From sequence record MN342150: 64,000 bases of DNA. One strand, 5' to 3'. This DNA is from Escherichia phage vB_EcoM_3HA11. Each line of letters starts with the position of its first letter. Positions within the stretch are counted from its first letter, which is position 1. A program made the translations under genes and the position numbers. Shown one piece after another: positions 1,074-37,991 of this stretch. A model generated the notes under the pieces. That model did not search any database, had not been told where the DNA came from, and saw only the letters and a program-made list of their open reading frames with translations.

Positions 1074-3461
1074 ATGGCCATCCCATCTTTCTTGAACTTT
1101 CTTGAAGAGTCTAAACAATTAGACGAAGCGTTTAACTCATCCCCGTATGAATTGACTTTCGGCAAGAAGAACGCTGGCGACATTTTCTTCACATTTGTTG
1201 ATGAAGACGAAAAAGAATTCCGTATTCAATTCTATACCCCACAAGGTCTAGGCAAGAATGTTCGCCAAGTCTTTATCGGTCAGAAGCGTGGTTCAACCTA
1301 TCCAGACGCAATCGGTCGTTTCAAAAACCCAATGCGTGTCATCGCATCCATGATCGAAGCGACTAAACAATTCATGGCGACACCGCTGGGTAAAACCATT
1401 GATGGGTTTGCGATTAACTTCTCCAAGAAAGCTCTAGAACGCGGAACGACGTTACTCCCAAAAATTATTCGTCAATCTGGTCTGAAGCAGAAACTCAACG
1501 TCATGGATCTGACTTATACCCCAATCCCTGACCGCGCCTTCGTATGGGTTGTGCGTAAAGGCAAGGATCCTGCTCAGGTATTTGATGGTCCGAAAATGAA
1601 AGGTGTCACATGGGATGATCCGGACAAAGTCGGTGACGTTCCTGACCAGGCTGCTCGTGACGCCGCACTACAAGGTGACATGGATGATTTGAGCCAAGCC
1701 GTAAATGCCGATTCTCGCTGGATTCTGACCAAAGCTGATCATACTCAGCCTATGCTTGTCTGGTCTGGTAAAGAACGTGGGCGGACTATTACCGCCAATA
1801 TCGCACCTCACGCGAATGAACCTGGTGTGTATGCTGGTAGTATCATGAACGAGAAACGGATCCGCGCTCAATCCCCAGACGCTATTGTACGCCAACTGGG
1901 ATTACCGCAGATCCCTCTGAATATTCTGAATGATTTCACCAAGCAGTCGTCCATCTTCTGGAAAGAGATGACGGGGGATTCTGGAAAAATAGACATGCAG
2001 ACTCTTCCAAAAACCGGTTCTATGGATGATCTGCGCAACCAGGGTTATATCGCCCGCATCTTGGGCATCGTTGATACATATGCTCCTCAGCAAGTCGGCA
2101 TGTATGCTGGTGAAAAATTGGCTCGGGTTGGTGCTGGCAAATATCGAACTTCTGGCGGGTTGGATATTCAAGTCTATTTTTGGGGGATTGTCAACAGCAA
2201 ACTCTCTGTAGAAGTGGTTTCTGATTTATCTGGCAATGAACAGCTGATGCTGGAAGGCGACGTGAAAAACGCGGCTTTTGAAATCGTCAGTGCGATATCC
2301 CGTGCTGCTGATTCTCAGTTCAACGGTGAAGTGGAATGTCGTGTTGTTCCGATCAACGGTGCCCCATACCCGATTCAAAAGATTTCCCGTTCCCAGGGTT
2401 ATTCTTATGTCGATTGTATTTCGTTTACTTTGAAGATCGCCGATGCATTGTTAAATCGATTTACTCTGGGTAAGGCAGTCAAACTCGATCTGATAAAAGA
2501 GTTCCCTCGAACGACGTTTATTGTTCGTTATGACTGGCGCGGCAAAGATACTCTGATGGTCCAGTCTTCTGATGGGAAGACTATCTTCGGCGAAATCAAC
2601 ACAAATTCCAGTGATAACGCTGTCATCACTGCGAACCTGAAAGCCCCAAGCAATGCGAAGATATTTGGTGAAACCGTTCATGGGTTCTCTGTGGCTTGGG
2701 ACTTCCAGTTCCCTGCGGGTAGCCAGCTGCAAGCCGCACGGTTCGTTACGAACGTGACTTACGACTTCGATCGTAATAAGGCCAACATCACGACCATGCT
2801 GACAGAAAATGGCCGAAATGTAGTCAATAGCCGCGGATATGACATTCAGTTATCTGTCAAGTCTGTGCAAGATGCTTTGAATGAGACTTCACAACGCCTG
2901 AAAGACGCTGCGGCTCAATTGAGCCATCTCAGTTCATCAAACTATAACCCGAACAATCTGTTCCTGAATGATATCACCGTCAGTAAGTTTGGTGCAATTA
3001 TGTTCCAAGACAAAGATCTGGCACAGTCCAGAAACCGCACGGTAGTCATTGATGCTTTGGCTCGGGCGAAAGATCAGGTCGCTGGTGGTAAGAATGCAGG
3101 TGACCTGGCCACCTATGCCGGATCCATTCGTGACAGCGCTCCTAATGGACGAGATCTGGATTGGCAGGTATACACAGCCAGTAATGGTACAGTTCTGAAT
3201 GTTGCTTGGGATATCACTTTCCGTCGCAACACAACCGAAGGCGCATATCGTGAATTCAAAGATCAGATCAACCGTGCCAACCAATACCTGCAAACGGTAT
3301 ACAACGACGCGAAATCTAAAGGCTATAATCCCACCGAGCCAAATCTCATGACTATTGAACGCGCTCGTCAATCCGACGAATGGGCTATGAGTAATGGTGA
3401 TAGTGCATACAGTGAATATGAACAATCGCTGGGTGGTAATCTCCAGATCCGTCTGAAATAA
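1074..3461 (+). CDS. large hypothetical protein (795 aa) with capsid-targeting-sequence-like N-terminus; candidate packaged/injected protein
   Basis: Long ORF with SD AGGAG; N-terminus SFLNFLEES resembles the F-x-x-F-L-x-E pattern of T4 internal-protein targeting peptides. Confidence 0.55.
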   Translation: MAIPSFLNFLEESKQLDEAFNSSPYELTFGKKNAGDIFFTFVDEDEKEFRIQFYTPQGLGKNVRQVFIGQKRGSTYPDAIGRFKNPMRVIASMIEATKQFMATPLGKTIDGFAINFSKKALERGTTLLPKIIRQSGLKQKLNVMDLTYTPIPDRAFVWVVRKGKDPAQVFDGPKMKGVTWDDPDKVGDVPDQAARDAALQGDMDDLSQAVNADSRWILTKADHTQPMLVWSGKERGRTITANIAPHANEPGVYAGSIMNEKRIRAQSPDAIVRQLGLPQIPLNILNDFTKQSSIFWKEMTGDSGKIDMQTLPKTGSMDDLRNQGYIARILGIVDTYAPQQVGMYAGEKLARVGAGKYRTSGGLDIQVYFWGIVNSKLSVEVVSDLSGNEQLMLEGDVKNAAFEIVSAISRAADSQFNGEVECRVVPINGAPYPIQKISRSQGYSYVDCISFTLKIADALLNRFTLGKAVKLDLIKEFPRTTFIVRYDWRGKDTLMVQSSDGKTIFGEINTNSSDNAVITANLKAPSNAKIFGETVHGFSVAWDFQFPAGSQLQAARFVTNVTYDFDRNKANITTMLTENGRNVVNSRGYDIQLSVKSVQDALNETSQRLKDAAAQLSHLSSSNYNPNNLFLNDITVSKFGAIMFQDKDLAQSRNRTVVIDALARAKDQVAGGKNAGDLATYAGSIRDSAPNGRDLDWQVYTASNGTVLNVAWDITFRRNTTEGAYREFKDQINRANQYLQTVYNDAKSKGYNPTEPNLMTIERARQSDEWAMSNGDSAYSEYEQSLGGNLQIRLK

Positions 3462-3508
3462 ACCATAGCCCCTTCGGGGGCTAAATACATCAAAATCCTT
3501 AGGAGATC

Positions 3509-4081
3509 ATGATGAAACCGTTTATCGAATATTTTAAAGAACAAGCCCAGCAGCCGCAAACTCATGGCGGTATACAAGGCAAAAGTGTAACCATCACTAA
3601 ACAAGCCGATGGAACACAATGGTGCTCCGGCGCTACCGTGACCCAGATCACTCCTGACAATCAGGCCGATGTCTATAACCTGGAATTGACTAATGGCAAC
3701 ACCACTAAAGTGAAACTGACGCCGGACCAGGTTCATGCGGTTTCTGTGGGCAAAGATGTTGTTGCCGTTCATGACGGATACGAATTCTTCTTTGGTAAAG
3801 ACGCCAGCAAAGGTCAGGTCACAGAATCCTATGCTCAAGAACTAGCGAATATGGATAAGATGATCGGTAAAGCGCTGGGCGTTGGCAAATCTCGTAAAAG
3901 CGGTCGTACAGAGTTTGAATATTCCGGTATTCCTGGTATTGGAAAACCTGTCGCAATCGACTTCGGCGGCGAAGACGATCCGTATGTGATCGTCACAGTC
4001 GCTGGTAAACAGCATGACATCAGTAAGGGAAAAACCCTAGCTGTGGACATTGCCAAATATATCGGCGTGAAACCTGTCTAA
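3509..4081 (+). CDS. hypothetical protein, weak capsid-targeting-like N-terminus (KPFIEYFKEQA)
   Basis: ORF with SD AGGAG 6 nt upstream; follows a hairpin. Confidence 0.5.
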   Translation: MMKPFIEYFKEQAQQPQTHGGIQGKSVTITKQADGTQWCSGATVTQITPDNQADVYNLELTNGNTTKVKLTPDQVHAVSVGKDVVAVHDGYEFFFGKDASKGQVTESYAQELANMDKMIGKALGVGKSRKSGRTEFEYSGIPGIGKPVAIDFGGEDDPYVIVTVAGKQHDISKGKTLAVDIAKYIGVKPV

Positions 4082-4090
4082 GGAGGTTGT

Positions 4091-4330
4091 ATGAAAGGGT
4101 TCCCGGATTTCCTGAAAGAGGCGAAGGTTGACCATCGCCGCCTTGGACAACAAGGTATGTACGACATCACTGATGTTGGCCGCCCCGAAAAAGGCGAACT
4201 GATCGACTACTATGATCGTAACGGGGACAAACATCAGGGGAAAGTGAAGTCTGTGAACGCACAGAATATCATGACTCTGACAAACACCAGCACTGGTGAA
4301 ACAGTCAAACTGACTCTGATTAAGCCATAA
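4091..4330 (+). CDS. internal head protein-like small protein (N-terminus MKGFPDFLKEAK)
   Basis: SD AAGGAGG; N-terminal 11 residues match the T4 IP capsid-targeting pattern MKTYQEFIAEA. Confidence 0.55.
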   Translation: MKGFPDFLKEAKVDHRRLGQQGMYDITDVGRPEKGELIDYYDRNGDKHQGKVKSVNAQNIMTLTNTSTGETVKLTLIKP

Positions 4331-5405: not shown

Positions 5406-5467
5406 CTCAATAGAACATCCTTCAGGTTATAATTTGCCCATTCGTCATCAATAGGATACAGATAACA

Positions 5468-6085
5468 ATGGGCAAAATCTTTATACCTTCTCATTCGGAA
5501 GGTTGTCAAATCGCTGCAAAATTTCTACACAAACAAATGAATTGTGGTGCTGTGTTCGTAGAACCAAATTCATTCGATAATCGTGAATCCCCTGACGCCA
5601 TCGGGTTCAGACCTGGGGGTTGTTCTATATTAATGGAAGTGAAAGTTTCTCGTTCTGATTTCCTAACCGATAAAAAGAAACCACACAGAATGGATCCTTC
5701 AACAGGAATGGGGGCATACCGATTTTATGTTTGTCCTGCTGATGTGATCAAAGTTGAAGATCTCCCACCAAAGTGGGGATTATTATATTTCACTCCTCGG
5801 AAATCATTGAAGCCCGTTCACGTTCCGAATATGCAATATTCTTCGTTATCTTCTCCGGAACATTATGCAAAATATTTGTCCACAGCATTAGGCAAAAAGC
5901 GGTCGACAGATATTCCTCCTTACCTGTTAGGATATAAGCAGATGTTGGAAGAATTCGCCCACTTTGAACGAAATCAAGTCGCAGAGCAGAATATTCTATA
6001 TGGTGCATGGAGACAGCTTTGCATAGCTCAAAGTCGCGGTGTAAATTATAATGTGACAGAAGTATTCCAAAGGCCAAATATCTGA
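5468..6085 (+). CDS. PD-(D/E)xK nuclease-fold protein (putative)
   Basis: Motif ESPDAIGF...ILMEVKVSRSDF fits the D...E-x-K catalytic core; stop overlaps start of primase. Confidence 0.45.
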   Translation: MGKIFIPSHSEGCQIAAKFLHKQMNCGAVFVEPNSFDNRESPDAIGFRPGGCSILMEVKVSRSDFLTDKKKPHRMDPSTGMGAYRFYVCPADVIKVEDLPPKWGLLYFTPRKSLKPVHVPNMQYSSLSSPEHYAKYLSTALGKKRSTDIPPYLLGYKQMLEEFAHFERNQVAEQNILYGAWRQLCIAQSRGVNYNVTEVFQRPNI

Positions 6086-7149
6086 TGAAATTCTTAGACG
6101 AACAATACATCAATTTCCTCGCCCCTCGGCTTGACAAGTTCAGCTGGGAACGCGTAGGCGCTGTCGCCAAGTTCCGTTGCCCTCTATGCGGGGACTCTAA
6201 GAAGAGTGCCAACAAACGTCGTGGTCACTTCTTTTATGATCGCGATGAAGATGTGTTTCGTTTTAAGTGTCACAACTGCAACGAGATGAGTGGTTGGTCG
6301 TTTGAGTTTTGGTTGAAGAAGTTTGATGAAAGATTGTACAACGAATATAATCTTGAAAAATTCAGAATCATGGGGGACACCAATTCACGCCCCCTACAAA
6401 AACTCAAGCCATTACAGCGCCTCACCCAAACAGCGCGTATCGGCTCCCAAGTTGCCAAAAGAGATGAAGAGCATCTCGGCAACATGATACGATTAGATTT
6501 ACTTGATCGTGACCATATTGCTCGTCGTTACGTGGAAGGCAGGGGAATGCCGGAGAGCGCGTTATCTCTTTTGTATTACAGCAAGAACTTCCGCAAGGAT
6601 CTTTTGAATTTTGAAACAGACGTTGAAAAACAGAAGAAGATCCCTGAAGATGAACGGTTGGTTATCCCATTCTGGACTCAAGACGGTCGCATGAAGATCG
6701 TTCAGGGGCGCGCATTCGGTGATAACCTTCCTGATAATGTGTTGCGGTACGCCACTGTCAAGCCCAAAAACGAGGATACTAAAATCTATGGGGAAGAGCG
6801 CATCATATGGAATAAGACCAAATTGGTCGTTGAAGGTCCAATTGATAGCCTGTTCCTCCCGAATTGTTTAGCAACTGCGGATGCTGACCTTCTGAGCGCC
6901 AAGGGGGATATCTATATCCCTGACAACCAATATCGAAACAAACAAGTTTGTGATGGTATACAGAAAATGATAGACAGCGGAGTCAAAGTCGTTCTGTTCC
7001 CGCCAGAAATTCCATGGAAGGATATCAACGATATGGTTCGCCCCGACAAGGGAAATATCCCGATACGTGATCTGCTTCAGATCATAGCCAAGAACGTATA
7101 TCAGGGGATGTCGGCGTCCTTACGATTTTCTGACTTGAGGAAGATATGA
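6085..7149 (+). CDS. 61: DNA primase (T4 gp61-like)
   Basis: Zinc-ribbon FRCPLCGDSK plus KIYGEERI, LVVEGPIDSLF and KDINDMVRP blocks matching T4 gp61; 354 aa. Confidence 0.85.
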   Translation: MKFLDEQYINFLAPRLDKFSWERVGAVAKFRCPLCGDSKKSANKRRGHFFYDRDEDVFRFKCHNCNEMSGWSFEFWLKKFDERLYNEYNLEKFRIMGDTNSRPLQKLKPLQRLTQTARIGSQVAKRDEEHLGNMIRLDLLDRDHIARRYVEGRGMPESALSLLYYSKNFRKDLLNFETDVEKQKKIPEDERLVIPFWTQDGRMKIVQGRAFGDNLPDNVLRYATVKPKNEDTKIYGEERIIWNKTKLVVEGPIDSLFLPNCLATADADLLSAKGDIYIPDNQYRNKQVCDGIQKMIDSGVKVVLFPPEIPWKDINDMVRPDKGNIPIRDLLQIIAKNVYQGMSASLRFSDLRKI

Positions 7150-30984: not shown

Positions 30985-30990
30985 TTGCCA

Positions 30991-32415
30991 ATGTTACTCG
31001 AATCTGTCGTGCTTTCCCAATTAATCTACAATGAAGAATATCAAAGAAAGATCCAGCCGTATTTGAAAGCCGATTATTTCGATAACGAAGGCGAGAAGAT
31101 TATATTTGGTCTTATAGACCATTACACTTGCGAATATAATGCTCGTCCTTCGGTTGAAGCGCTGTCTATTATGCTGGAAAAGACTTCGCTCAATGAACAC
31201 GTATTTGATCAGGCCATTTCTGCTCTTGAAAATATTAATGACAATACTTTTCATCAGGACTGGTTAGTAAAAGAAACAGAAAGTTGGGCGCGTCAGAAAG
31301 CTGTTCATAACGCAATTAGACAAGCCGTTAACATATACGGCGATGAGAAACGCAAAGATGAGATGAACAACATCCCTACTTTGCTGCAAGAAGCCCTGGC
31401 GATTCAGTTTGATTCATATCTCGGTCACATCTATTGGGAAATGGCTGAGCAACAATACGACCACATGAACTCTAATGAAGCGAAGATCCCTTTCGCCGTA
31501 GAGATATTCAACAAAGCAACTCGTGGTGGTGTTGGCAAGAAGACATTGAACATCGTTACAGGCGCAATCAACGCAGGTAAGACAACAACTCTGATTGATT
31601 TGGCTGCTGGTTATGCCGAGCAGGGGTTGAATGTGTTCGTATTCACCCTCGAAGTGGCCGAGAACGTCTGGCGACACCGCCTTGATGCCCGTATGATGCG
31701 CAGGGACTTCGAGTCCTTAGAGAAGCTCTCACGGCACGAGTATATTGCCACCATACAAAAACTGAGAACCCGTCAAGACGGTTCCATGAAGGGTGATATT
31801 GTTATCAAGGAATATCCTTCGGGCGCGGGGCATACAGGTTTGTATCGTCGTGATATTCTTGATTATGCGACTGTAACAGGAATTACACCCGATGTCATCA
31901 TTATTGACTACTTGGGGGAATCTGCGTCTTCTCGCCTTCCCGCTCACTTGATGCAAAACACCAACGTGTATTATACATCCGTGGCGCGAGAATTCCGTGC
32001 TCTTGGGTTTGAGTTTGATTGCCCTGTTTGGACAGGTATGCAGTTTAACCGTGAAACGCAATCAGCAACTGATGGTAATATCAGTGACTTGGCAGACGCT
32101 ATCGGTATCCCGAAGGTCGCTGACTTTATCATGGCGTTTTATGCCCCAGACGAACTGGCGGCTGTTAAGAAAGCCAGAGCATCAATCTTGAAAAATCGTT
32201 ATGCCAACAAGCAGAAACTCAAATCATTCTTGTTTGGTATGGACCAAGATAAACAGATCTTGTTCGACTTGGACTGGAATGAAGTCAAACGAGACCTGAC
32301 TGATGAAGAAGCCCGTTATGTTGAGAACGTGCATATCAAGCATGACTTGAATAAAACGGGGGACTCAAATGATGTTAAAAAAGCCGAGACCGTCAATAGT
32401 TGGAATTTCGGTTAA
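30991..32415 (+). CDS. 41: replicative DNA helicase (DnaB family, T4 gp41-like)
   Basis: Walker A GAINAGKTT, DnaB-like C-terminal RecA fold; ATG at 30991 (track ORF begins at TTG 30985). Confidence 0.88.
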   Translation: MLLESVVLSQLIYNEEYQRKIQPYLKADYFDNEGEKIIFGLIDHYTCEYNARPSVEALSIMLEKTSLNEHVFDQAISALENINDNTFHQDWLVKETESWARQKAVHNAIRQAVNIYGDEKRKDEMNNIPTLLQEALAIQFDSYLGHIYWEMAEQQYDHMNSNEAKIPFAVEIFNKATRGGVGKKTLNIVTGAINAGKTTTLIDLAAGYAEQGLNVFVFTLEVAENVWRHRLDARMMRRDFESLEKLSRHEYIATIQKLRTRQDGSMKGDIVIKEYPSGAGHTGLYRRDILDYATVTGITPDVIIIDYLGESASSRLPAHLMQNTNVYYTSVAREFRALGFEFDCPVWTGMQFNRETQSATDGNISDLADAIGIPKVADFIMAFYAPDELAAVKKARASILKNRYANKQKLKSFLFGMDQDKQILFDLDWNEVKRDLTDEEARYVENVHIKHDLNKTGDSNDVKKAETVNSWNFG

Positions 32416-32823: not shown

Positions 32824-33135
32824 ATGTCAGTTGAACAAATTGGTTTTTATCAACTCCCTTCTGATCCGAAACTGCGTCAAAAGATGATGCAGACATTGGA
32901 AAATTGCCGCGCCGCCCAGATCCGTATCAAGTCTGAACAGACATTTGTTACCGAAGCTCTGGCCGAATTGGCAAAAGAAACAGGCATCAAAGCCGTTGAT
33001 CTGCGCAAAGTCGTTACTGACCGCGCTGGCGGAACTTACACCAAGACCATCGAGACCAGCGCCAAATACCAAGATCTCTATGAGTCTCTGTATCCTAATG
33101 CAGCGCCTGATCGCGCAGCCGATCCTCAGCCATAA
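32824..33135 (+). CDS. hypothetical protein
   Basis: ORF with SD GAGGA. Confidence 0.45.
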   Translation: MSVEQIGFYQLPSDPKLRQKMMQTLENCRAAQIRIKSEQTFVTEALAELAKETGIKAVDLRKVVTDRAGGTYTKTIETSAKYQDLYESLYPNAAPDRAADPQP

Positions 33136-33136
33136 A

Positions 33137-33172
33137 TCCCCCAGAAAGCCCAACAAATTGTTGGGCTTTTTA
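33137..33172 (+). terminator. rho-independent terminator (AAGCCCAACAA-ATT-GTTGGGCTT plus TTTT)
   Basis: 11-bp stem with T run. Confidence 0.6.
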
Positions 33173-33181
33173 TTTGAAACC

Positions 33182-33210
33182 TTTACTTCAATAAAACATA
33201 CGGCTATCAT
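33182..33210 (+). promoter_or_regulatory. T4-early-like promoter (-35 TTTACT, 17 nt spacer, -10 TATCAT)
   Basis: Same architecture as 644, 7448 and 13899. Confidence 0.35.
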
Positions 33211-33253
33211 TTAACCTACTTTGAAAAGTTTCACTATATCATGAGAGGCAGAT

Positions 33254-34447
33254 ATGAAAGCCAAGACCTTCAGTATTCCTATCGACAACATTGGTCGTGT
33301 CAAGGAACGTCTGGCCAAACTTGAAAGAACGGCCAAGCGCCTGAATCTCGAGTTCCCTCTTGTCGAATACAGCGAACCATACAAAACCCAGCATCGCGAT
33401 TCTATCACTGGTGAAAAATTCTATCGGTGGTGGCAGGATTGTACACTCACTGGTGAAGGCATCGACCGCCCCGTTTCCTACGGCGGGTGGAGCATTATTG
33501 GACAATTCAATCACCAATATCCAAAAGTCATCTTGAATAAATTAGCAGATGACATCCACCCTAATTTCATTCAAAGATTCGAAGCCGAAAACGTGTCTTG
33601 GTGTGAGCATTGTAATAAATCTGTGCGTCGTCATAACACATATGTTGTTCGTAACGAACAATCCGGCGCTCAAATGTTGGTCGGCAGTAGCTGTATGCAC
33701 CATTACGTTCCTCATCAGAAATCGCTTGATGCCGTGATGTCTTATTATATGTCGATACATGAAATGTTCTCACCTGATGAAGATGACCCTGAAGGCATCT
33801 ATCGAGTGAACGAACCTGATTACGTTGACACTGAAGGTTATTTGCGGAATTGCTTTCAGGTTCTGCTGTCTGGTATGAGTATGAAGAGCGATGATTTTGG
33901 TCGAGTTCTTGGTCATATTTCTAGCGGGACTCGTCCGGAGAAAGGTTCTGACATTGAGATATTCTATAACAAGGCTGTTAAAGCCCGTGAAGATGCTCAA
34001 TCAGAAATGTACCATATGATGCTTTTCATCGCCGCGTTGTCTGAGAACAATGATTTCAACGTTCGCCTGAAACGTATGTGTGAACCTGGATATCACCTCG
34101 TTAAGGACTCCACGACAGTTCGTTGGGGAGCAGCAAAGTATTATGATTATATCCACACCCCCCGCCAAATGCGTTCTGTATCAAATTGGGTGGGGGAAGT
34201 CGGTGAAATGTTAGAAGTGCAAGTCAAATTCGAAGCAAGGATTTTCCTGCATTCATCTGATTATGGTGACACGTATCTGTATACTTTCAAAACCAAAGAA
34301 GGCAATACCATTACATGGAAGACTTCTTATATGGAAACCGAATTCCTGGAAGGTGATATGATCATTCGTGGTCGCGTCAAAGAATTGACCGAATTCAAAG
34401 ATGTTAAACAAACTCAGGTAACAAGGGCAAAACTGAGGAAATTATGA
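33254..34447 (+). CDS. hypothetical protein (397 aa) with Cys/His cluster (CEHC...CMHH)
   Basis: Long ORF, SD GAGAGG; putative zinc site around residues 115-150. Confidence 0.55.
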   Translation: MKAKTFSIPIDNIGRVKERLAKLERTAKRLNLEFPLVEYSEPYKTQHRDSITGEKFYRWWQDCTLTGEGIDRPVSYGGWSIIGQFNHQYPKVILNKLADDIHPNFIQRFEAENVSWCEHCNKSVRRHNTYVVRNEQSGAQMLVGSSCMHHYVPHQKSLDAVMSYYMSIHEMFSPDEDDPEGIYRVNEPDYVDTEGYLRNCFQVLLSGMSMKSDDFGRVLGHISSGTRPEKGSDIEIFYNKAVKAREDAQSEMYHMMLFIAALSENNDFNVRLKRMCEPGYHLVKDSTTVRWGAAKYYDYIHTPRQMRSVSNWVGEVGEMLEVQVKFEARIFLHSSDYGDTYLYTFKTKEGNTITWKTSYMETEFLEGDMIIRGRVKELTEFKDVKQTQVTRAKLRKL

Positions 34448-34560
34448 TTCTTTTACAATTTGTTTTGAAAGCATTTGCATTCGGTCTTATCGCATGCGGA
34501 GTGATCACAGCTATGCTGTTAATCATAGCCCTGATCATCCCCTTTAAGAGGAAACGCTGA
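34444..34560 (+). CDS. micro-ORF encoding a 38-aa hydrophobic peptide (MILLQFVLKAFAFGLIACGVITAMLLIIALIIPFKRKR)
   Basis: ATG overlaps the upstream stop (ATGA) and its stop overlaps the next start (TGATG); not in the supplied track because it is under 60 aa. Confidence 0.3.
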   Translation: MILLQFVLKAFAFGLIACGVITAMLLIIALIIPFKRKR

Positions 34561-34769
34561 TGGAATGTTCATGCGGAGGGCAAGGCACAAGTGCATACTT
34601 GCCATTTAACACCGTCAAGGAAGCCGAAGACGCTGGATATGCCGTGGATAAGGCTCCCTGTGTAATTGCCACCAAGGATTGTCCGTGCTGTAAGAGGCAC
34701 TCTCAGAACGTTTGGTATGCCCCAGAAGCAAAGGGCAAAATTAATTTATTGAATATGATGAGGAAGTAA
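34560..34769 (+). CDS. small Cys-rich protein (CSCGG...CPCCKRH)
   Basis: ORF with 6 Cys in 69 aa. Confidence 0.45.
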   Translation: MECSCGGQGTSAYLPFNTVKEAEDAGYAVDKAPCVIATKDCPCCKRHSQNVWYAPEAKGKINLLNMMRK

Positions 34770-34770
34770 T

Positions 34771-35112
34771 ATGACCACACTCGTAGAAACATTATTCCCA
34801 GGATGCACCCTTGGGCGCGGTGGTAGCGAAGCCAACGGGCTGGCAATTGACGCCGAACCCCAGAACTGCGTTGTTATCGACAAATTCCATGACAATCATT
34901 ATGCTCTGAATGATCGTCGCGATCATTATTTGGTTTCTGTGGGAGAATCTTTGGTTCACCTTCGAATCTGTTCTGCTTTACCAGGATATGGGTATGACGC
35001 ATTTGCTTATATCCATGATGTTTCCAACGGCGCGTTGGGGAAAGAATCCCTGATTGAAAAATTCAAGAGTTGGAAGGAGTCCTTCACCTCTGTCACACCA
35101 CCTAAGAAATAA
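34771..35112 (+). CDS. hypothetical protein
   Basis: ORF. Confidence 0.45.
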   Translation: MTTLVETLFPGCTLGRGGSEANGLAIDAEPQNCVVIDKFHDNHYALNDRRDHYLVSVGESLVHLRICSALPGYGYDAFAYIHDVSNGALGKESLIEKFKSWKESFTSVTPPKK

Positions 35113-35127
35113 TTGAGGAATATATTA

Positions 35128-35736
35128 ATGTCACTGAAAACATTTTTAAACCGCCTGTTCAGCACTGTCGAGGCCAATTTAACTGCAGGTTTGGATAAAC
35201 TCACAGATACCGAGAAGCGTTTGAATCTGGCTGCACGGAAACTATCTGATGAAATCCGGCGTTTAGAAGAAGCCCGTGTAACCAATGTCCACCATGGCGT
35301 TAAGATGAAGAAGACCGCTGATGAAAATCTGGCTGAAGCCATCAAGCGAGAAACCATTTTGAAAGATGCGATCGCTCGTGGAGTAACTCCTACCCGCGCC
35401 GAAGCTTTAATCATACTCCACCGCCGTCGTATTGGTGAAGCCTTGCTGGATAAAGTCAAAGAGATCGAATCTGGCAGCGTGAAATTGAATTCGGCGATTG
35501 TTGAATTGGGTGACAAACTGGACGCTGTTAAGTCTAATCTCGAATTGGTCCGAATTCAGAAAGAATCGAATGATCTTGGGTTAACTTTACCGGAAGACAT
35601 CGATTACGCGGCTGGAATGATTAATGTCGATGTTGATGCTATCCTTCGGGAAGCTGAAATCGCAGATTCCAATTATTCTACCAATAGCCCTTCAGCAACA
35701 GAAGCGGACAATTATCTGGCAAATTTATCAAAATAA
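35128..35736 (+). CDS. PspA/IM30-like coiled-coil protein (putative)
   Basis: N-terminal amphipathic helix MSLKTFLNRLFSTVEANL followed by long heptad-like helices, reminiscent of PspA/Vipp1; ATG at 35128 with SD GAGGAA. Confidence 0.4.
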   Translation: MSLKTFLNRLFSTVEANLTAGLDKLTDTEKRLNLAARKLSDEIRRLEEARVTNVHHGVKMKKTADENLAEAIKRETILKDAIARGVTPTRAEALIILHRRRIGEALLDKVKEIESGSVKLNSAIVELGDKLDAVKSNLELVRIQKESNDLGLTLPEDIDYAAGMINVDVDAILREAEIADSNYSTNSPSATEADNYLANLSK

Positions 35737-35773: not shown

Positions 35774-36346
35774 ATGGTCATTATTGACTCAACAGATATT
35801 TTGATTGCTGTTCTTAGTATGGTTGGGGTCTGTATTCTCGTTATGGGAATCAAAAAATCTTTGGGAAAACAAGTTGTTGAGGCCGTCTCCTCAGATTTAC
35901 AACCAGAAAATACCACGAAAAATGTTAAAGACATAAAACTTATTCTGAGTAGCCGTGTGTCCAAAAGTTTGGTTCCGAGCATAGATGATTTCAACTTACA
36001 CTACAAAGACCCAGACACTACTCCTGAAGAATATTTTCAATATTTCATGAAAGGTTTGGGTTGGCCGTTCATAGAATCGTGTGTATCAAAATCAAATTGT
36101 TTCTATTTGAAAATAGCATGTAAAGGTGAATATCAGGCTGTATGGTTTTGGAATTACGACGACACTTACGATAAACAATTTTTGATATATCTTCACAGGT
36201 TGTTTAAAGAGTATATGAACAACGGCAATGTCCCTGTTCACAAGGTAGAAACTGTAGAATCTATCGTGGATCGTGCTCGAACTCGTAATGGAACGAAACC
36301 AGATTATCTTTCCAAGTATGGATTTGTTTGGAAGGAGGACATATGA
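35774..36346 (+). CDS. membrane-anchored protein (N-terminal TM helix plus about 165-aa soluble domain)
   Basis: TM segment ILIAVLSMVGVCILVMGI right after the ATG at 35774 (SD GGGGGA). Confidence 0.45.
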   Translation: MVIIDSTDILIAVLSMVGVCILVMGIKKSLGKQVVEAVSSDLQPENTTKNVKDIKLILSSRVSKSLVPSIDDFNLHYKDPDTTPEEYFQYFMKGLGWPFIESCVSKSNCFYLKIACKGEYQAVWFWNYDDTYDKQFLIYLHRLFKEYMNNGNVPVHKVETVESIVDRARTRNGTKPDYLSKYGFVWKEDI

Positions 36347-36510
36347 AAGACATTTCATTTTATATTTGGTCTGCAATATTATTTTTCGGGATCTTGATTA
36401 TTCTTTTTCAACCGTTTTGGGCCGAATGGATCAATAATAGAAGAATGCGCAAATATGGAGTGGATGTTCTTCAGATTGTAGATAAGGCTAGAAAAAGACG
36501 CAGCAAATAA
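36343..36510 (+). CDS. small single-TM protein (55 aa)
   Basis: SD GGAGGA; hydrophobic IWSAILFFGILIILF; ATGA overlap with the upstream gene. Confidence 0.4.
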   Translation: MKDISFYIWSAILFFGILIILFQPFWAEWINNRRMRKYGVDVLQIVDKARKRRSK

Positions 36511-36563: not shown

Positions 36564-37991
36564 ATGATGCTTCCTCTCTTAGAAATAATCCAAAATCTTC
36601 GTGATACCAAAGGCACTAATGCTAAGAAAGCCGTGTTGACCGAAGCGTTCAGAACCAATCCGGAACTGGTTGATTTCCTTCAATACGTTTATGATCCAAT
36701 GCGTTCTTATTATCGCACCCAATTCAATCTGAATGCATTCCCTCGTATGCTTTCGCGCGGCGTTGTCGGTAGCTGGGATCAGGTTTATGACGTTCTTGAT
36801 ATGATGTCAGAACGTCGTATTGGCGGGATGAAGGCCGACCAAGAACTGGCAAAAGCCGCAACGAATATTCACTCTGATTATCACACCCTCATCCAGATCA
36901 TTCTCGACCGAGACATTAAAGCGGGGATTGCTGAGAAAGGTATCAACGCAGCATTCAACGCAGCCGGAGGCACAGGTCGCCTGATTAACATCCTCCCATA
37001 TCATCGTTATGGCAACATGACGATTGATTTGTTGAAGACGATGGACTTTAAGCGTGGCGTCTTCAGCCAGCTGAAGTCAGATGGCATGTTCGCCAACATC
37101 ATCTGTCGTTATGGAAGAGACCCAGAGATTCGTTCTCGTTCCGGTTCTCTTATTGCAGGAGGTTCTGTTGATAACCTGTCATTAGTTTTCAAAGACCTGA
37201 TCTACGATGCGGGGATTGGTGAAAGTGTATTCCATGGTGAACTCCTCGTCATTGATCTGAAAACGAATACAGTGTTGCCTCGGGCTATCGGCAATGGTAA
37301 GCTCAACAGTGTCATCCAAACGGGTGAACCCCTGGAAGATCGTTACAAGGTGATCTACCGAGTGTGGGATGTTGTGCCGTATGACAAGTGGTTCGCCGCC
37401 GAGCGCGTGGACACGCCTTACGAGCAGCGCTTCGATATCATACAGCAACTGTTTGATGAAGGCGATGGTCTGGTTCAGGTTCAGGAGACCCGTGTCGTTC
37501 ATTCGTTCGAAGAGGCGGTTGATCATTTCAAGGACGCACTGGCCCGTGGTGAAGAAGGAACGATCTGCAAAGCGGCTGATATGCCATGGGAAGACGGCAC
37601 GTCCTCTGAAGGTCTGAAGCTGAAGATGGAAGTAGAATGTGACCTTGAAATCGTTGGCTTCAATGAGGCCGACAAGAAAGGGAAACACGCCAAGACATTT
37701 GGTTCCCTCCTCTGCAAGACATCCGACGGCCTATTAGTCGTTGGTGTCTCTGGGATCTCAGATGAGCTGAGACTCCGGATGTGGGAAAACCAGGGCGACT
37801 ACATTGGCATGATAGCTGCAGTGCTCTCTAACGGTGTCCAGGATAAAACAGATGACGCCATGAAGTCCTTGTTCCTCCCGCGACTTGTCGAAGTGCGCAC
37901 AGACAAGAAAGTTGCCAACACGCTGGCTGAAGTCTATGCTATCCAGAAAGCGTACATTGAAAACATTCTGGTGTTGTTAGAGGCAGCATAG
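36564..37991 (+). CDS. 30: ATP-dependent DNA ligase (T4 gp30-like)
   Basis: Adenylation motif KSDG (LKSDGMFAN), 475 aa, nucleotidyltransferase plus OB-fold layout. Confidence 0.85.
   Translation: MMLPLLEIIQNLRDTKGTNAKKAVLTEAFRTNPELVDFLQYVYDPMRSYYRTQFNLNAFPRMLSRGVVGSWDQVYDVLDMMSERRIGGMKADQELAKAATNIHSDYHTLIQIILDRDIKAGIAEKGINAAFNAAGGTGRLINILPYHRYGNMTIDLLKTMDFKRGVFSQLKSDGMFANIICRYGRDPEIRSRSGSLIAGGSVDNLSLVFKDLIYDAGIGESVFHGELLVIDLKTNTVLPRAIGNGKLNSVIQTGEPLEDRYKVIYRVWDVVPYDKWFAAERVDTPYEQRFDIIQQLFDEGDGLVQVQETRVVHSFEEAVDHFKDALARGEEGTICKAADMPWEDGTSSEGLKLKMEVECDLEIVGFNEADKKGKHAKTFGSLLCKTSDGLLVVGVSGISDELRLRMWENQGDYIGMIAAVLSNGVQDKTDDAMKSLFLPRLVEVRTDKKVANTLAEVYAIQKAYIENILVLLEAA

Follow-up and report, generated by a model that had tools for sequence, protein, structure and literature searches.

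What are the three overlapping open reading frames (ORFs) that lie near the DNA ligase gene in a 64,000-nucleotide stretch of Escherichia phage vB_EcoM_3HA11 (MN342150; this whole stretch is called the window below), and do their products work together or only stand together? The original prediction had described a large Cys/His protein followed by two translationally coupled micro-genes, and the ORFs of 397, 38 and 69 amino acids (aa) were found exactly where it had placed them:

33254..34447, plus strand: 397-aa ORF, ATG start, PHROG 2319
34444..34560, plus strand: 38-aa ORF, ATG start, PHROG 6569
34560..34769, plus strand: 69-aa ORF, ATG start, PHROG 4789

Each ORF of this trio is conserved in Kuttervirus, Limestonevirus, Taipeivirus and related Ackermannviridae loci. 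All three are real genes. Comparative and structural analyses make it on balance probable that they are separate modules with a shared gene order in a conserved operon: a 397-aa binding protein, a membrane peptide and a module linked to DNA ligase. The three modules would be kept together by gene order, and would not form a dedicated three-part machine. The 2.2 kb around the three ORFs were searched against phage records. They share 99.3% identity with Salmonella phage vB_STmST313_KE27 and 93-97% identity with the other Kuttervirus records listed (Vi01, CBA120, Mooltan and others; Ackermannviridae), and the window phage is, judged by this similarity, a Vi01-like Kuttervirus. The trio genes are already annotated as hypothetical proteins in the GenBank relatives, and a compact operon of this kind is ordinary; literature searches found no study of these genes.

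The connection to DNA ligase was found in the genus Miltonvirus. ORF scans of distant relatives showed that the Cys-rich sequence opens a 565-aa ORF in Serratia phage KNP4, and the same 565-aa gene is annotated as a DNA ligase in phiMAM1 (gp164, YP_007349143.1). The whole 69-aa protein aligns at 47% identity (E 5e-22) with residues 1-72 of the phiMAM1 ligase. Further on in the same enzyme, residues 87-565 align with the whole ligase of the window (51% identity), which is encoded by a gene of its own:

36564..37991, plus strand: T4 gp30-type ATP-dependent DNA ligase of 475 aa, annotated as ligase in KE27, without an N-terminal Cys module

The fusion is present in all five distinct Miltonvirus genomes, which are phiMAM1, 2050H1, KNP4, vB_SmaA_3M and the more divergent Kevin. 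Because the module is fused in frame to the ligase N-terminus in these five genomes, the 69-aa protein is probably a ligase accessory domain. The fusion points to the pathway of the 69-aa protein, not to its mechanism, and it explains the GenBank 'DNA ligase' labels on the 69-aa ORF. The possibility that the 69-aa protein is itself a DNA ligase was rejected, since it covers only the first 72 residues of the phiMAM1 enzyme and the catalytic core (87-565) is the separate 475-aa gene.

The module that is fused in the Miltonvirus ligase is a separate gene in the window, 1.8 kb upstream of the ligase gene. In other phages it lies directly 5' of the ligase gene, at a distance of 143 nucleotides (nt) in LIMEstone1, 41 nt in Bue1, 5 nt in Vibrio phage D503 and 52 nt in Vibrio phage YC; in Bue1 it is four genes away from the 397-aa gene. 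All 11 protein-database homologues are free-standing (51-73 aa), and the family is confined to the Ackermannviridae, with 278 phage records. A specificity hidden Markov model (HMM) was built from the enterobacterial-type homologues and the phiMAM1 ligase N-terminus. Tested on 6,201 ORFs, it recovered Bue1 (2e-13), two Vibrio members (1e-6 and 1.4e-5) and nothing else. The 69-aa protein covers positions 1-69 of 70 in PHROG 4789 (E 8.3e-44), which is labelled 'unknown function', and the PHROG scan also gave a weak match to positions 1-61 of the ATP-dependent DNA ligase family phrog_114. It has no match in Pfam, NCBIfam or PADLOC, and PDB sequence and profile searches returned nothing significant (best profile E 0.19, to the unrelated PerR).

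The family shares the motif CxCGG...P(C/V)...CxxCxR...Y. In a 13-sequence alignment that includes the Vibrio phages, the cysteines C3, C5, C41 and C44 are invariant together with G6, P33, R46 and Y53, and C34 is not. The ORF is Cys-rich and real, as proposed earlier, with a PHROG of its own. The CxC...CxxC arrangement is a probable Cys4 zinc site, and the N-terminal domain of the Miltonvirus ligase has the same cysteines. The 69-aa product would be a detached Cys4 zinc-binding module, which in Miltonvirus is a covalent N-terminal domain of the ligase. It would most likely work in trans with the gp30-type ligase or in its pathway, helping for instance with recruitment or with the binding of DNA or nicks. 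Zinc fingers are known on other ligases: the bacterial NAD-dependent LigA has a Cys4 finger, and eukaryotic DNA ligase III has an N-terminal PARP-like finger. These fingers help DNA binding or nick sensing. As in the Miltonvirus ligase, a small Cys-rich module is joined to a nucleotidyltransferase/OB core in both enzymes. This is an analogy only, because the cysteine spacing differs and no sequence or profile similarity to the 69-aa module was detected. The setting differs as well; here the module is either N-terminal to a T4 gp30-type ATP-dependent ligase or detached.

The 397-aa protein matches PHROG 2319 with residues 1-396 on profile positions 1-398 of 399 (E 1.3e-169), and is 99.7% identical to its Vi01 counterpart. 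It had been described as a large unknown protein, and it has no Pfam (E <= 0.1), NCBIfam, PADLOC or PDB sequence match. PDB searches with the protein and with its 51-sequence profile gave nothing significant, and 51 diverse PHROG 2319 members that were scanned have no Pfam family in common. PHROG 2319 itself is labelled 'unknown function', and every homologue in isolated phages is labelled 'hypothetical'. Homologues occur throughout the Ackermannviridae, in Kuttervirus, Limestonevirus, Taipeivirus, Miltonvirus, Nezavisimistyvirus, Campanilevirus and the Vibrio members. Those with 22-28% identity were found in the Straboviridae (KVP40-like phages, phiAS5, S13), the Caulobacter/Brevundimonas Dolichocephalovirinae, Ruegeria phage V10 and the 440-kb Salicola phage SCTP-2. 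The distant homologues (KVP40, Ruegeria V10, Salicola SCTP-2 and metagenomes) still match PHROG 2319. When 1.84 billion representative proteins were searched with a profile, 8,013 clusters matched at E <= 1e-3; at E <= 1e-10 there were still 3,935, and nearly all of the best 150 clusters are full length (370-420 aa). A word-indexed profile search started from the distant alignment added one protein. One family member of 664 aa (P0167) has an N-terminal extension of 261 residues; this has no PHROG or Pfam match, so that it offers no Rosetta-stone clue. In the record of Vibrio phage 1.244.A (locus L029, 2989..4217), the homologue is annotated as two coding sequences (CDSs), 2989..3390 and 3474..4217, which points to a frameshift, to a disrupted gene or to an error in sequencing.

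The structure prediction that had been proposed as a check was run with AlphaFold2, and gave a model with a mean predicted local distance difference test score (pLDDT) of 81 and a predicted template-modelling score (pTM) of 0.52. The model consists of an N-terminal alpha/beta part (residues 1-100), a beta zinc-ribbon-like part (115-150), a helical part (158-301) and a C-terminal beta barrel (319-396). Two segments can be placed on the DNA:

33596..33706, plus strand: zinc-ribbon-like segment, residues 115-151, with C117, H119, C120, C147, H149 and H150
34193..34441, plus strand: C-terminal OB-fold domain, residues about 314-396

The C-terminal domain of the predicted model is a five-stranded closed beta barrel that superposes on known OB domains, and the fold search with the full model returned OB-fold matches only. 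A search of BFVD gave uncharacterised phage proteins only, and a known structural counterpart of the N-terminal 300 residues or so was not found. The CEHC...CMHH cluster of the original prediction is present as W-C117-E-H-C120 and C147-M-H-H, with short beta strands predicted at residues 115-144. In 51 distant homologues, C117, C120, G144, C147, K376 and R391 are invariant; H119, R126, G314, G338, W355, Q386 and T387 are nearly so. The basic residues R124, R126 and K127 are kept in the family consensus. The metal site would be a zinc ribbon of Cys3 plus His/Asp. Candidates for the fourth ligand are H119, present in 50 of the 51 distant members but replaced by D or E in some Ackermannviridae; H149, which about 90% of the close set have; and D150, the residue of the distant majority.

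The zinc ribbon with basic residues and the modelled OB fold suggest that the 397-aa protein probably binds nucleic acid and is not an enzyme. Its substrate would be single-stranded or branched DNA, and its role would be accessory to replication, recombination or repair. Its OB fold is like those of known binders such as the DNA-binding domains of RPA and the wedge domain of RecG, yet the sequence identity is only 5-13%. T4 gp32 is absent from the structural matches listed for the model, and no Pfam OB family (such as tRNA_anti-codon or SSB) matches the protein. The zinc ribbon also lies about 170 residues upstream of the OB fold, not within it. The Vibrio relatives in the Ackermannviridae have a separate gene annotated as single-stranded DNA-binding protein (SSB) beside the PHROG 2319 homologue. 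A bolder proposal, which we regard as rather unlikely in full, makes a separate claim for each of the two proteins with conserved cysteines. The 69-aa module would be the trans subunit of a split ligase in most genera, docking like its fused Miltonvirus counterpart and altering DNA or nick recognition. PHROG 2319 would be an unrecognised and very widespread class of phage DNA-binding protein, in which a zinc ribbon and an OB fold are combined with a new N-terminal fold.

The place of the 397-aa gene on the chromosome bears on its role. The following features lie upstream of it:

30985..32415, plus strand: gp41/DnaB-like helicase gene, upstream of the trio
33143..33171, plus strand: intrinsic terminator hairpin, 13-bp stem and AAU loop, then a U-run
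33182..33210, plus strand: putative sigma-70-like promoter, TTTACT, 17 nt, TATCAT (9 of 12 matches in a consensus scan)

The 5' neighbours of the trio are a UvsX-like recombinase and the helicase; on the 3' side are the gp30-type ligase and then the gp59 helicase loader, and the whole region is on the plus strand. The terminator ends the upstream, helicase-side transcription unit. Its hairpin has -17.5 kcal/mol and z -5.55, and none of 200 shuffles was equally stable. A terminator is annotated at the equivalent place in Mooltan and LIMEstone1. The spacer was aligned for eight phages from five genera, and compensatory substitutions are found in the stem across genera. In the same alignment CTTTACTT is invariant and the -10-like element is conserved, and LIMEstone1 has a 'putative middle promoter' annotated at the position equivalent to 33182..33210. 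We infer that this element is the promoter that heads the operon, and because it and the terminator precede the 397-aa gene, this gene would be the first of its transcription unit. The spacer (33136..33253) is kept across the five genera, with a block TTGAA..G...CTA.ATCATGAG just 5' of the start codon, which could be part of the 5' untranslated region or a second promoter element. Small CDSs have been annotated in relatives across the terminator, the promoter spacer or the 5' end of the 397-aa gene, such as 33098..33214 (CDS0133 in KE27) and 4120..4275 of locus L002 (gp050c in phage N6); these look like spurious gene calls. An Rfam scan of 32900-35300 gave nothing above threshold, the best being a sub-threshold rimP (E 0.45). 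The operon would run from terminator and promoter through the 397-aa, 38-aa and 69-aa genes and further genes to the DNA ligase and the gp59 helicase loader. The trio would form the promoter-proximal end of this conserved Ackermannviridae operon, between the replicative helicase and ligase genes.

A first position behind a sigma-70-like promoter might also fit a factor for host takeover or anti-defence, which might, for example, act by sequestering nucleic acid or by binding a nuclease or a defence sensor of the host. PHROG 2319 is widespread in unrelated large lytic phages, and in the distant ones, outside the Ackermannviridae, it is the first sizeable gene at the head of long runs of small early-type genes, away from replication genes. 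No consistent neighbour was found across KVP40, phiAS5, S13, V10, Bajun, SCTP-2 and a JGI contig. However, PHROG 2319 matches neither PADLOC nor any known anti-defence family, and in the Ackermannviridae it has a stable place between the helicase/SSB and the ligase/loader genes. Nucleic-acid binding is the simplest reading of the OB fold and of the zinc ribbon with its conserved basic residues. The takeover role is a serious rival but the less probable one, and an accessory role in replication or repair is the preferred reading. As a separate observation, a different 60-aa CxxC...CxxC protein (ORF0023; locus L030, 4131..4313) directly follows the PHROG 2319 homologue in Aeromonas phage phiAS5; the HMM built for the 69-aa family does not recognise it.

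The second ORF is real as well. Its peptide, MILLQFVLKAFAFGLIACGVITAMLLIIALIIPFKRKR, has a single hydrophobic stretch (17-residue Kyte-Doolittle maximum 3.0) and ends in KRKR; the hydrophobic character and the reality of this ORF had both been anticipated. It covers all 38 positions of PHROG 6569 (E 2e-27; labelled 'unknown function'), and has no domain match beyond this PHROG and none in Pfam, NCBIfam or PADLOC. Transmembrane (TM) ORFs of 37-46 aa with a basic C-terminus and the ATGA overlap were found in all the Kuttervirus, Limestonevirus and Taipeivirus loci examined and in contigs L019, L021 and L022. Between the window and LIMEstone1, the proportions of nonsynonymous and synonymous differences are pN 0.09 and pS 0.49, with a rate ratio (dN/dS) of 0.12; over pairs with Limestonevirus-type sequences the ratio is 0.07-0.15. 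The DNA ligase gene is similarly constrained (pN 0.11), the 397-aa gene less tightly (pN 0.20). The TM core FAFGLIACGVITAML.IIALIIPFKRKR is identical between Kuttervirus and Limestonevirus, though about half of the synonymous sites differ. The Taipeivirus peptide (38 or 46 aa) has 34% identity, and retains the TM helix and the basic end. In all the Ackermannviridae genera sampled, those of the Vibrio phages among them, a TM protein of 30-167 aa is encoded directly 3' of the 397-aa gene; in most phages outside the family this neighbour is not conserved.

A very short ORF that is bracketed by overlaps, and whose only domain match is to its own PHROG, might be a chance frame or a spacer translated only to couple the next gene. 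The substitution pattern largely refutes this idea, which is now highly improbable: the TM core stays unchanged at a pS of 0.49, and the TM character and basic tail persist in the diverged Taipeivirus and Miltonvirus peptides. One hydrophobic stretch of at least 19 residues, a charge bias and amino-acid conservation were found together, and the 38-aa product is a real single-pass inner-membrane micro-protein, its membrane insertion being predicted from the sequence. The topology predicted from the charge of the tail would be N-out/C-in, with the KRKR tail in the cytoplasm. Short bitopic membrane proteins are known from large lytic phages and bacteria, such as T4 Imm or Sp and E. coli PspB. The 38-aa peptide is likewise bitopic, with a positive cytoplasmic tail and a place in an early/middle operon, although it is much shorter and has no sequence similarity to them. 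A holin or lysis-cassette protein was considered and rejected, because the neighbours are of the helicase and ligase sides, no endolysin lies within the 10 kb of annotation covered, and 38 aa compares with a usual length of at least 60 aa.

The peptide had been expected to escape routine annotation, and this did not hold. It is a CDS in KE27, GEC_vB_N6, Mooltan, LIMEstone1, Menlow and Ag3 and has its own PHROG 6569; it is labelled 'putative transmembrane domain present' in LIMEstone1 and 'hypothetical membrane protein' in Ag3. A micro-ORF that annotation really missed lies in Miltonvirus, where a 30-aa TM ORF (MFSTIYSVEFWAGFSVGISVIALIITFAKR) directly follows the PHROG 2319 gene and is unannotated (phiMAM1, locus L006, 3722..3814; KNP4, locus L037, 373..465).

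Further membrane-related genes follow in the same operon. Four ORFs lie between the 69-aa and the ligase genes in Kuttervirus, encoding a 113-aa protein, a PspA-like protein, a 240-aa membrane protein and a 60-aa TM protein. In the window, the last three are the following:

35113/35128..35736, plus strand: PspA/IM30-like coiled-coil protein of 202-207 aa
35624..36346: 240-aa membrane protein
36328..36510: 60-aa TM protein

The PspA/IM30-like protein matches Pfam PF04012 with E 3.9e-8 (33.6 bits, against a cut-off of 33.9 bits). It is homologous to the T4-type gene e.6, which is annotated as 'e.6' in RB43 and 'e.6 conserved hypothetical' in Ag3. Only about 44 Salmonella-phage records were found to carry the gene, so that this stretch is variable among Kutterviruses. 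These neighbours raise the question of whether the 38-aa peptide forms a membrane-maintenance cassette with the PspA/IM30-like protein and the other small TM proteins, as PspB/PspC do with PspA. In Miltonvirus the 30-aa TM ORF is immediately 5' of the PspA-like gene, and Bue1 has a TM or signal-peptide protein there. However, the TM micro-ORF of Limestonevirus and Taipeivirus stands at this locus without a neighbouring PspA-like gene, and the 44 or so records with the PspA-like gene compare with about 160 with the micro-ORF region. No similarity of the 38-aa peptide to PspB/PspC was detected, and such a cassette is improbable.

Is the trio one translational and functional unit? As the original prediction had it, each start overlaps the previous stop. 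The 397/38 junction is ATGA, a 4-nt overlap (34444-34447), and the 38/69 junction is TGATG (34558-34562), a 1-nt overlap at 34560. The proposed check of conservation was run: the ATGA junction is present in all the Kuttervirus, Limestonevirus and Taipeivirus loci fetched and in contigs L019, L021 and L022, and stop/start overlaps are conserved across genera in the Ackermannviridae loci examined. Each ORF has its own Shine-Dalgarno sequence: GAGAGG (33243-33248) for the 397-aa ORF; GAGG (34435-34438), 5 nt upstream and inside the 397-aa ORF, for the 38-aa ORF; and AAGAGGAAA (34546-34554, core 34548-34551), inside the 38-aa ORF, for the 69-aa ORF. Both junctions thus combine a stop/start overlap with a downstream ribosome-binding site within the upstream ORF, as in a coupled pair. 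However, of the 89 genes called crudely in the window, 12 overlap a following ORF of 30 aa or more by ATGA and 6 by 1 nt, about 20% in total, and 9 of the 19 junctions in 10 kb of the KE27 annotation overlap. Overlaps are the norm in this genome, and are therefore weak evidence for a special coupled unit. The RNA at the 397/38 and 38/69 junctions is no more structured than shuffles (z +0.59 and -0.04), so that there is no sign of a sequestered ribosome-binding site. The argument from the overlaps to coupled expression holds only in part. The conserved overlaps are compatible with it; common overlaps and a separate Shine-Dalgarno sequence for each ORF make coupling plausible, not special. The overlaps would be the ordinary compact packing of the genome, over which ribosomes may re-initiate; each ORF would also start from its own accessible Shine-Dalgarno sequence, and coupling would not be obligate. 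A programmed -1 frameshift that fuses the 397-aa and 38-aa ORFs was rejected, as the peptide frame is closed by TAA at 34405-34407 and a slippery heptamer is absent.

Obligate coupling at fixed ratios would be expected of one functional unit, such as a membrane-tethered nucleic-acid-handling complex. Such a unit finds some agreement in the order of the 397-aa, TM and Cys ORFs, which is conserved with its overlaps in Kuttervirus, Limestonevirus, Taipeivirus and the three contigs, and in the TM protein that always follows the large gene in the sampled Ackermannviridae genera. The order is not strict, however. Many Kutterviruses and contig L021 have a 66-aa gene that separates the 38-aa ORF from the 69-aa ORF. 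The Cys module is next to the ligase or fused with it, several genes from the 397-aa gene, in Bue1, Miltonvirus and the Vibrio phages. Many phages carry the 397-aa homologue without the other two, and every ORF of the trio has its own Shine-Dalgarno sequence in unstructured RNA. A single three-part unit is improbable on these grounds, and separate modules in a shared order remain the favoured account. The 66-aa gene encodes a basic protein (MKREIKDVYDPGSCCPGHDKY...) and is a presence/absence polymorphism exactly at the 38-aa/69-aa junction. It occurs in some Kutterviruses of the Mooltan type (locus L003, 4562..4762, Mooltan_169; L010, L013, L014, L018) and in one further Ackermannviridae contig, L021; the window has no such gene between 34560 and 34561.

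Some GenBank labels at this locus are misleading, namely those at 5434..6102 of locus L002 (GEC_vB_N6 gp048c-gp046c) and in MT499896, PP974339 and MT974436. The 38-aa TM ORF is called 'putative HNH homing endonuclease' there, and the 69-aa and 113-aa ORFs are called 'putative DNA ligase'. Apart from the 'ligase' label of the 69-aa ORF, these look like shifted annotation transfer.

For the Ackermannviridae, a 69-aa 'hypothetical protein' of about 280 records is now tied to DNA ligase by gene fusion. The fusion gives this protein a testable function, as a possible accessory domain of the T4-type ligase, a practically important class of enzyme. PHROG 2319 amounts to thousands of clusters (50% identity) from large lytic phages that are unrelated to each other, with neither a Pfam model nor a solved structure, and since the N-terminal 300 residues also have no recognisable fold, it is a reasonable target for structural and functional study. 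Two things at this locus merit follow-up: the fusion of the Cys module with the ligase, and the size that the PHROG 2319 family has reached while still unannotated.

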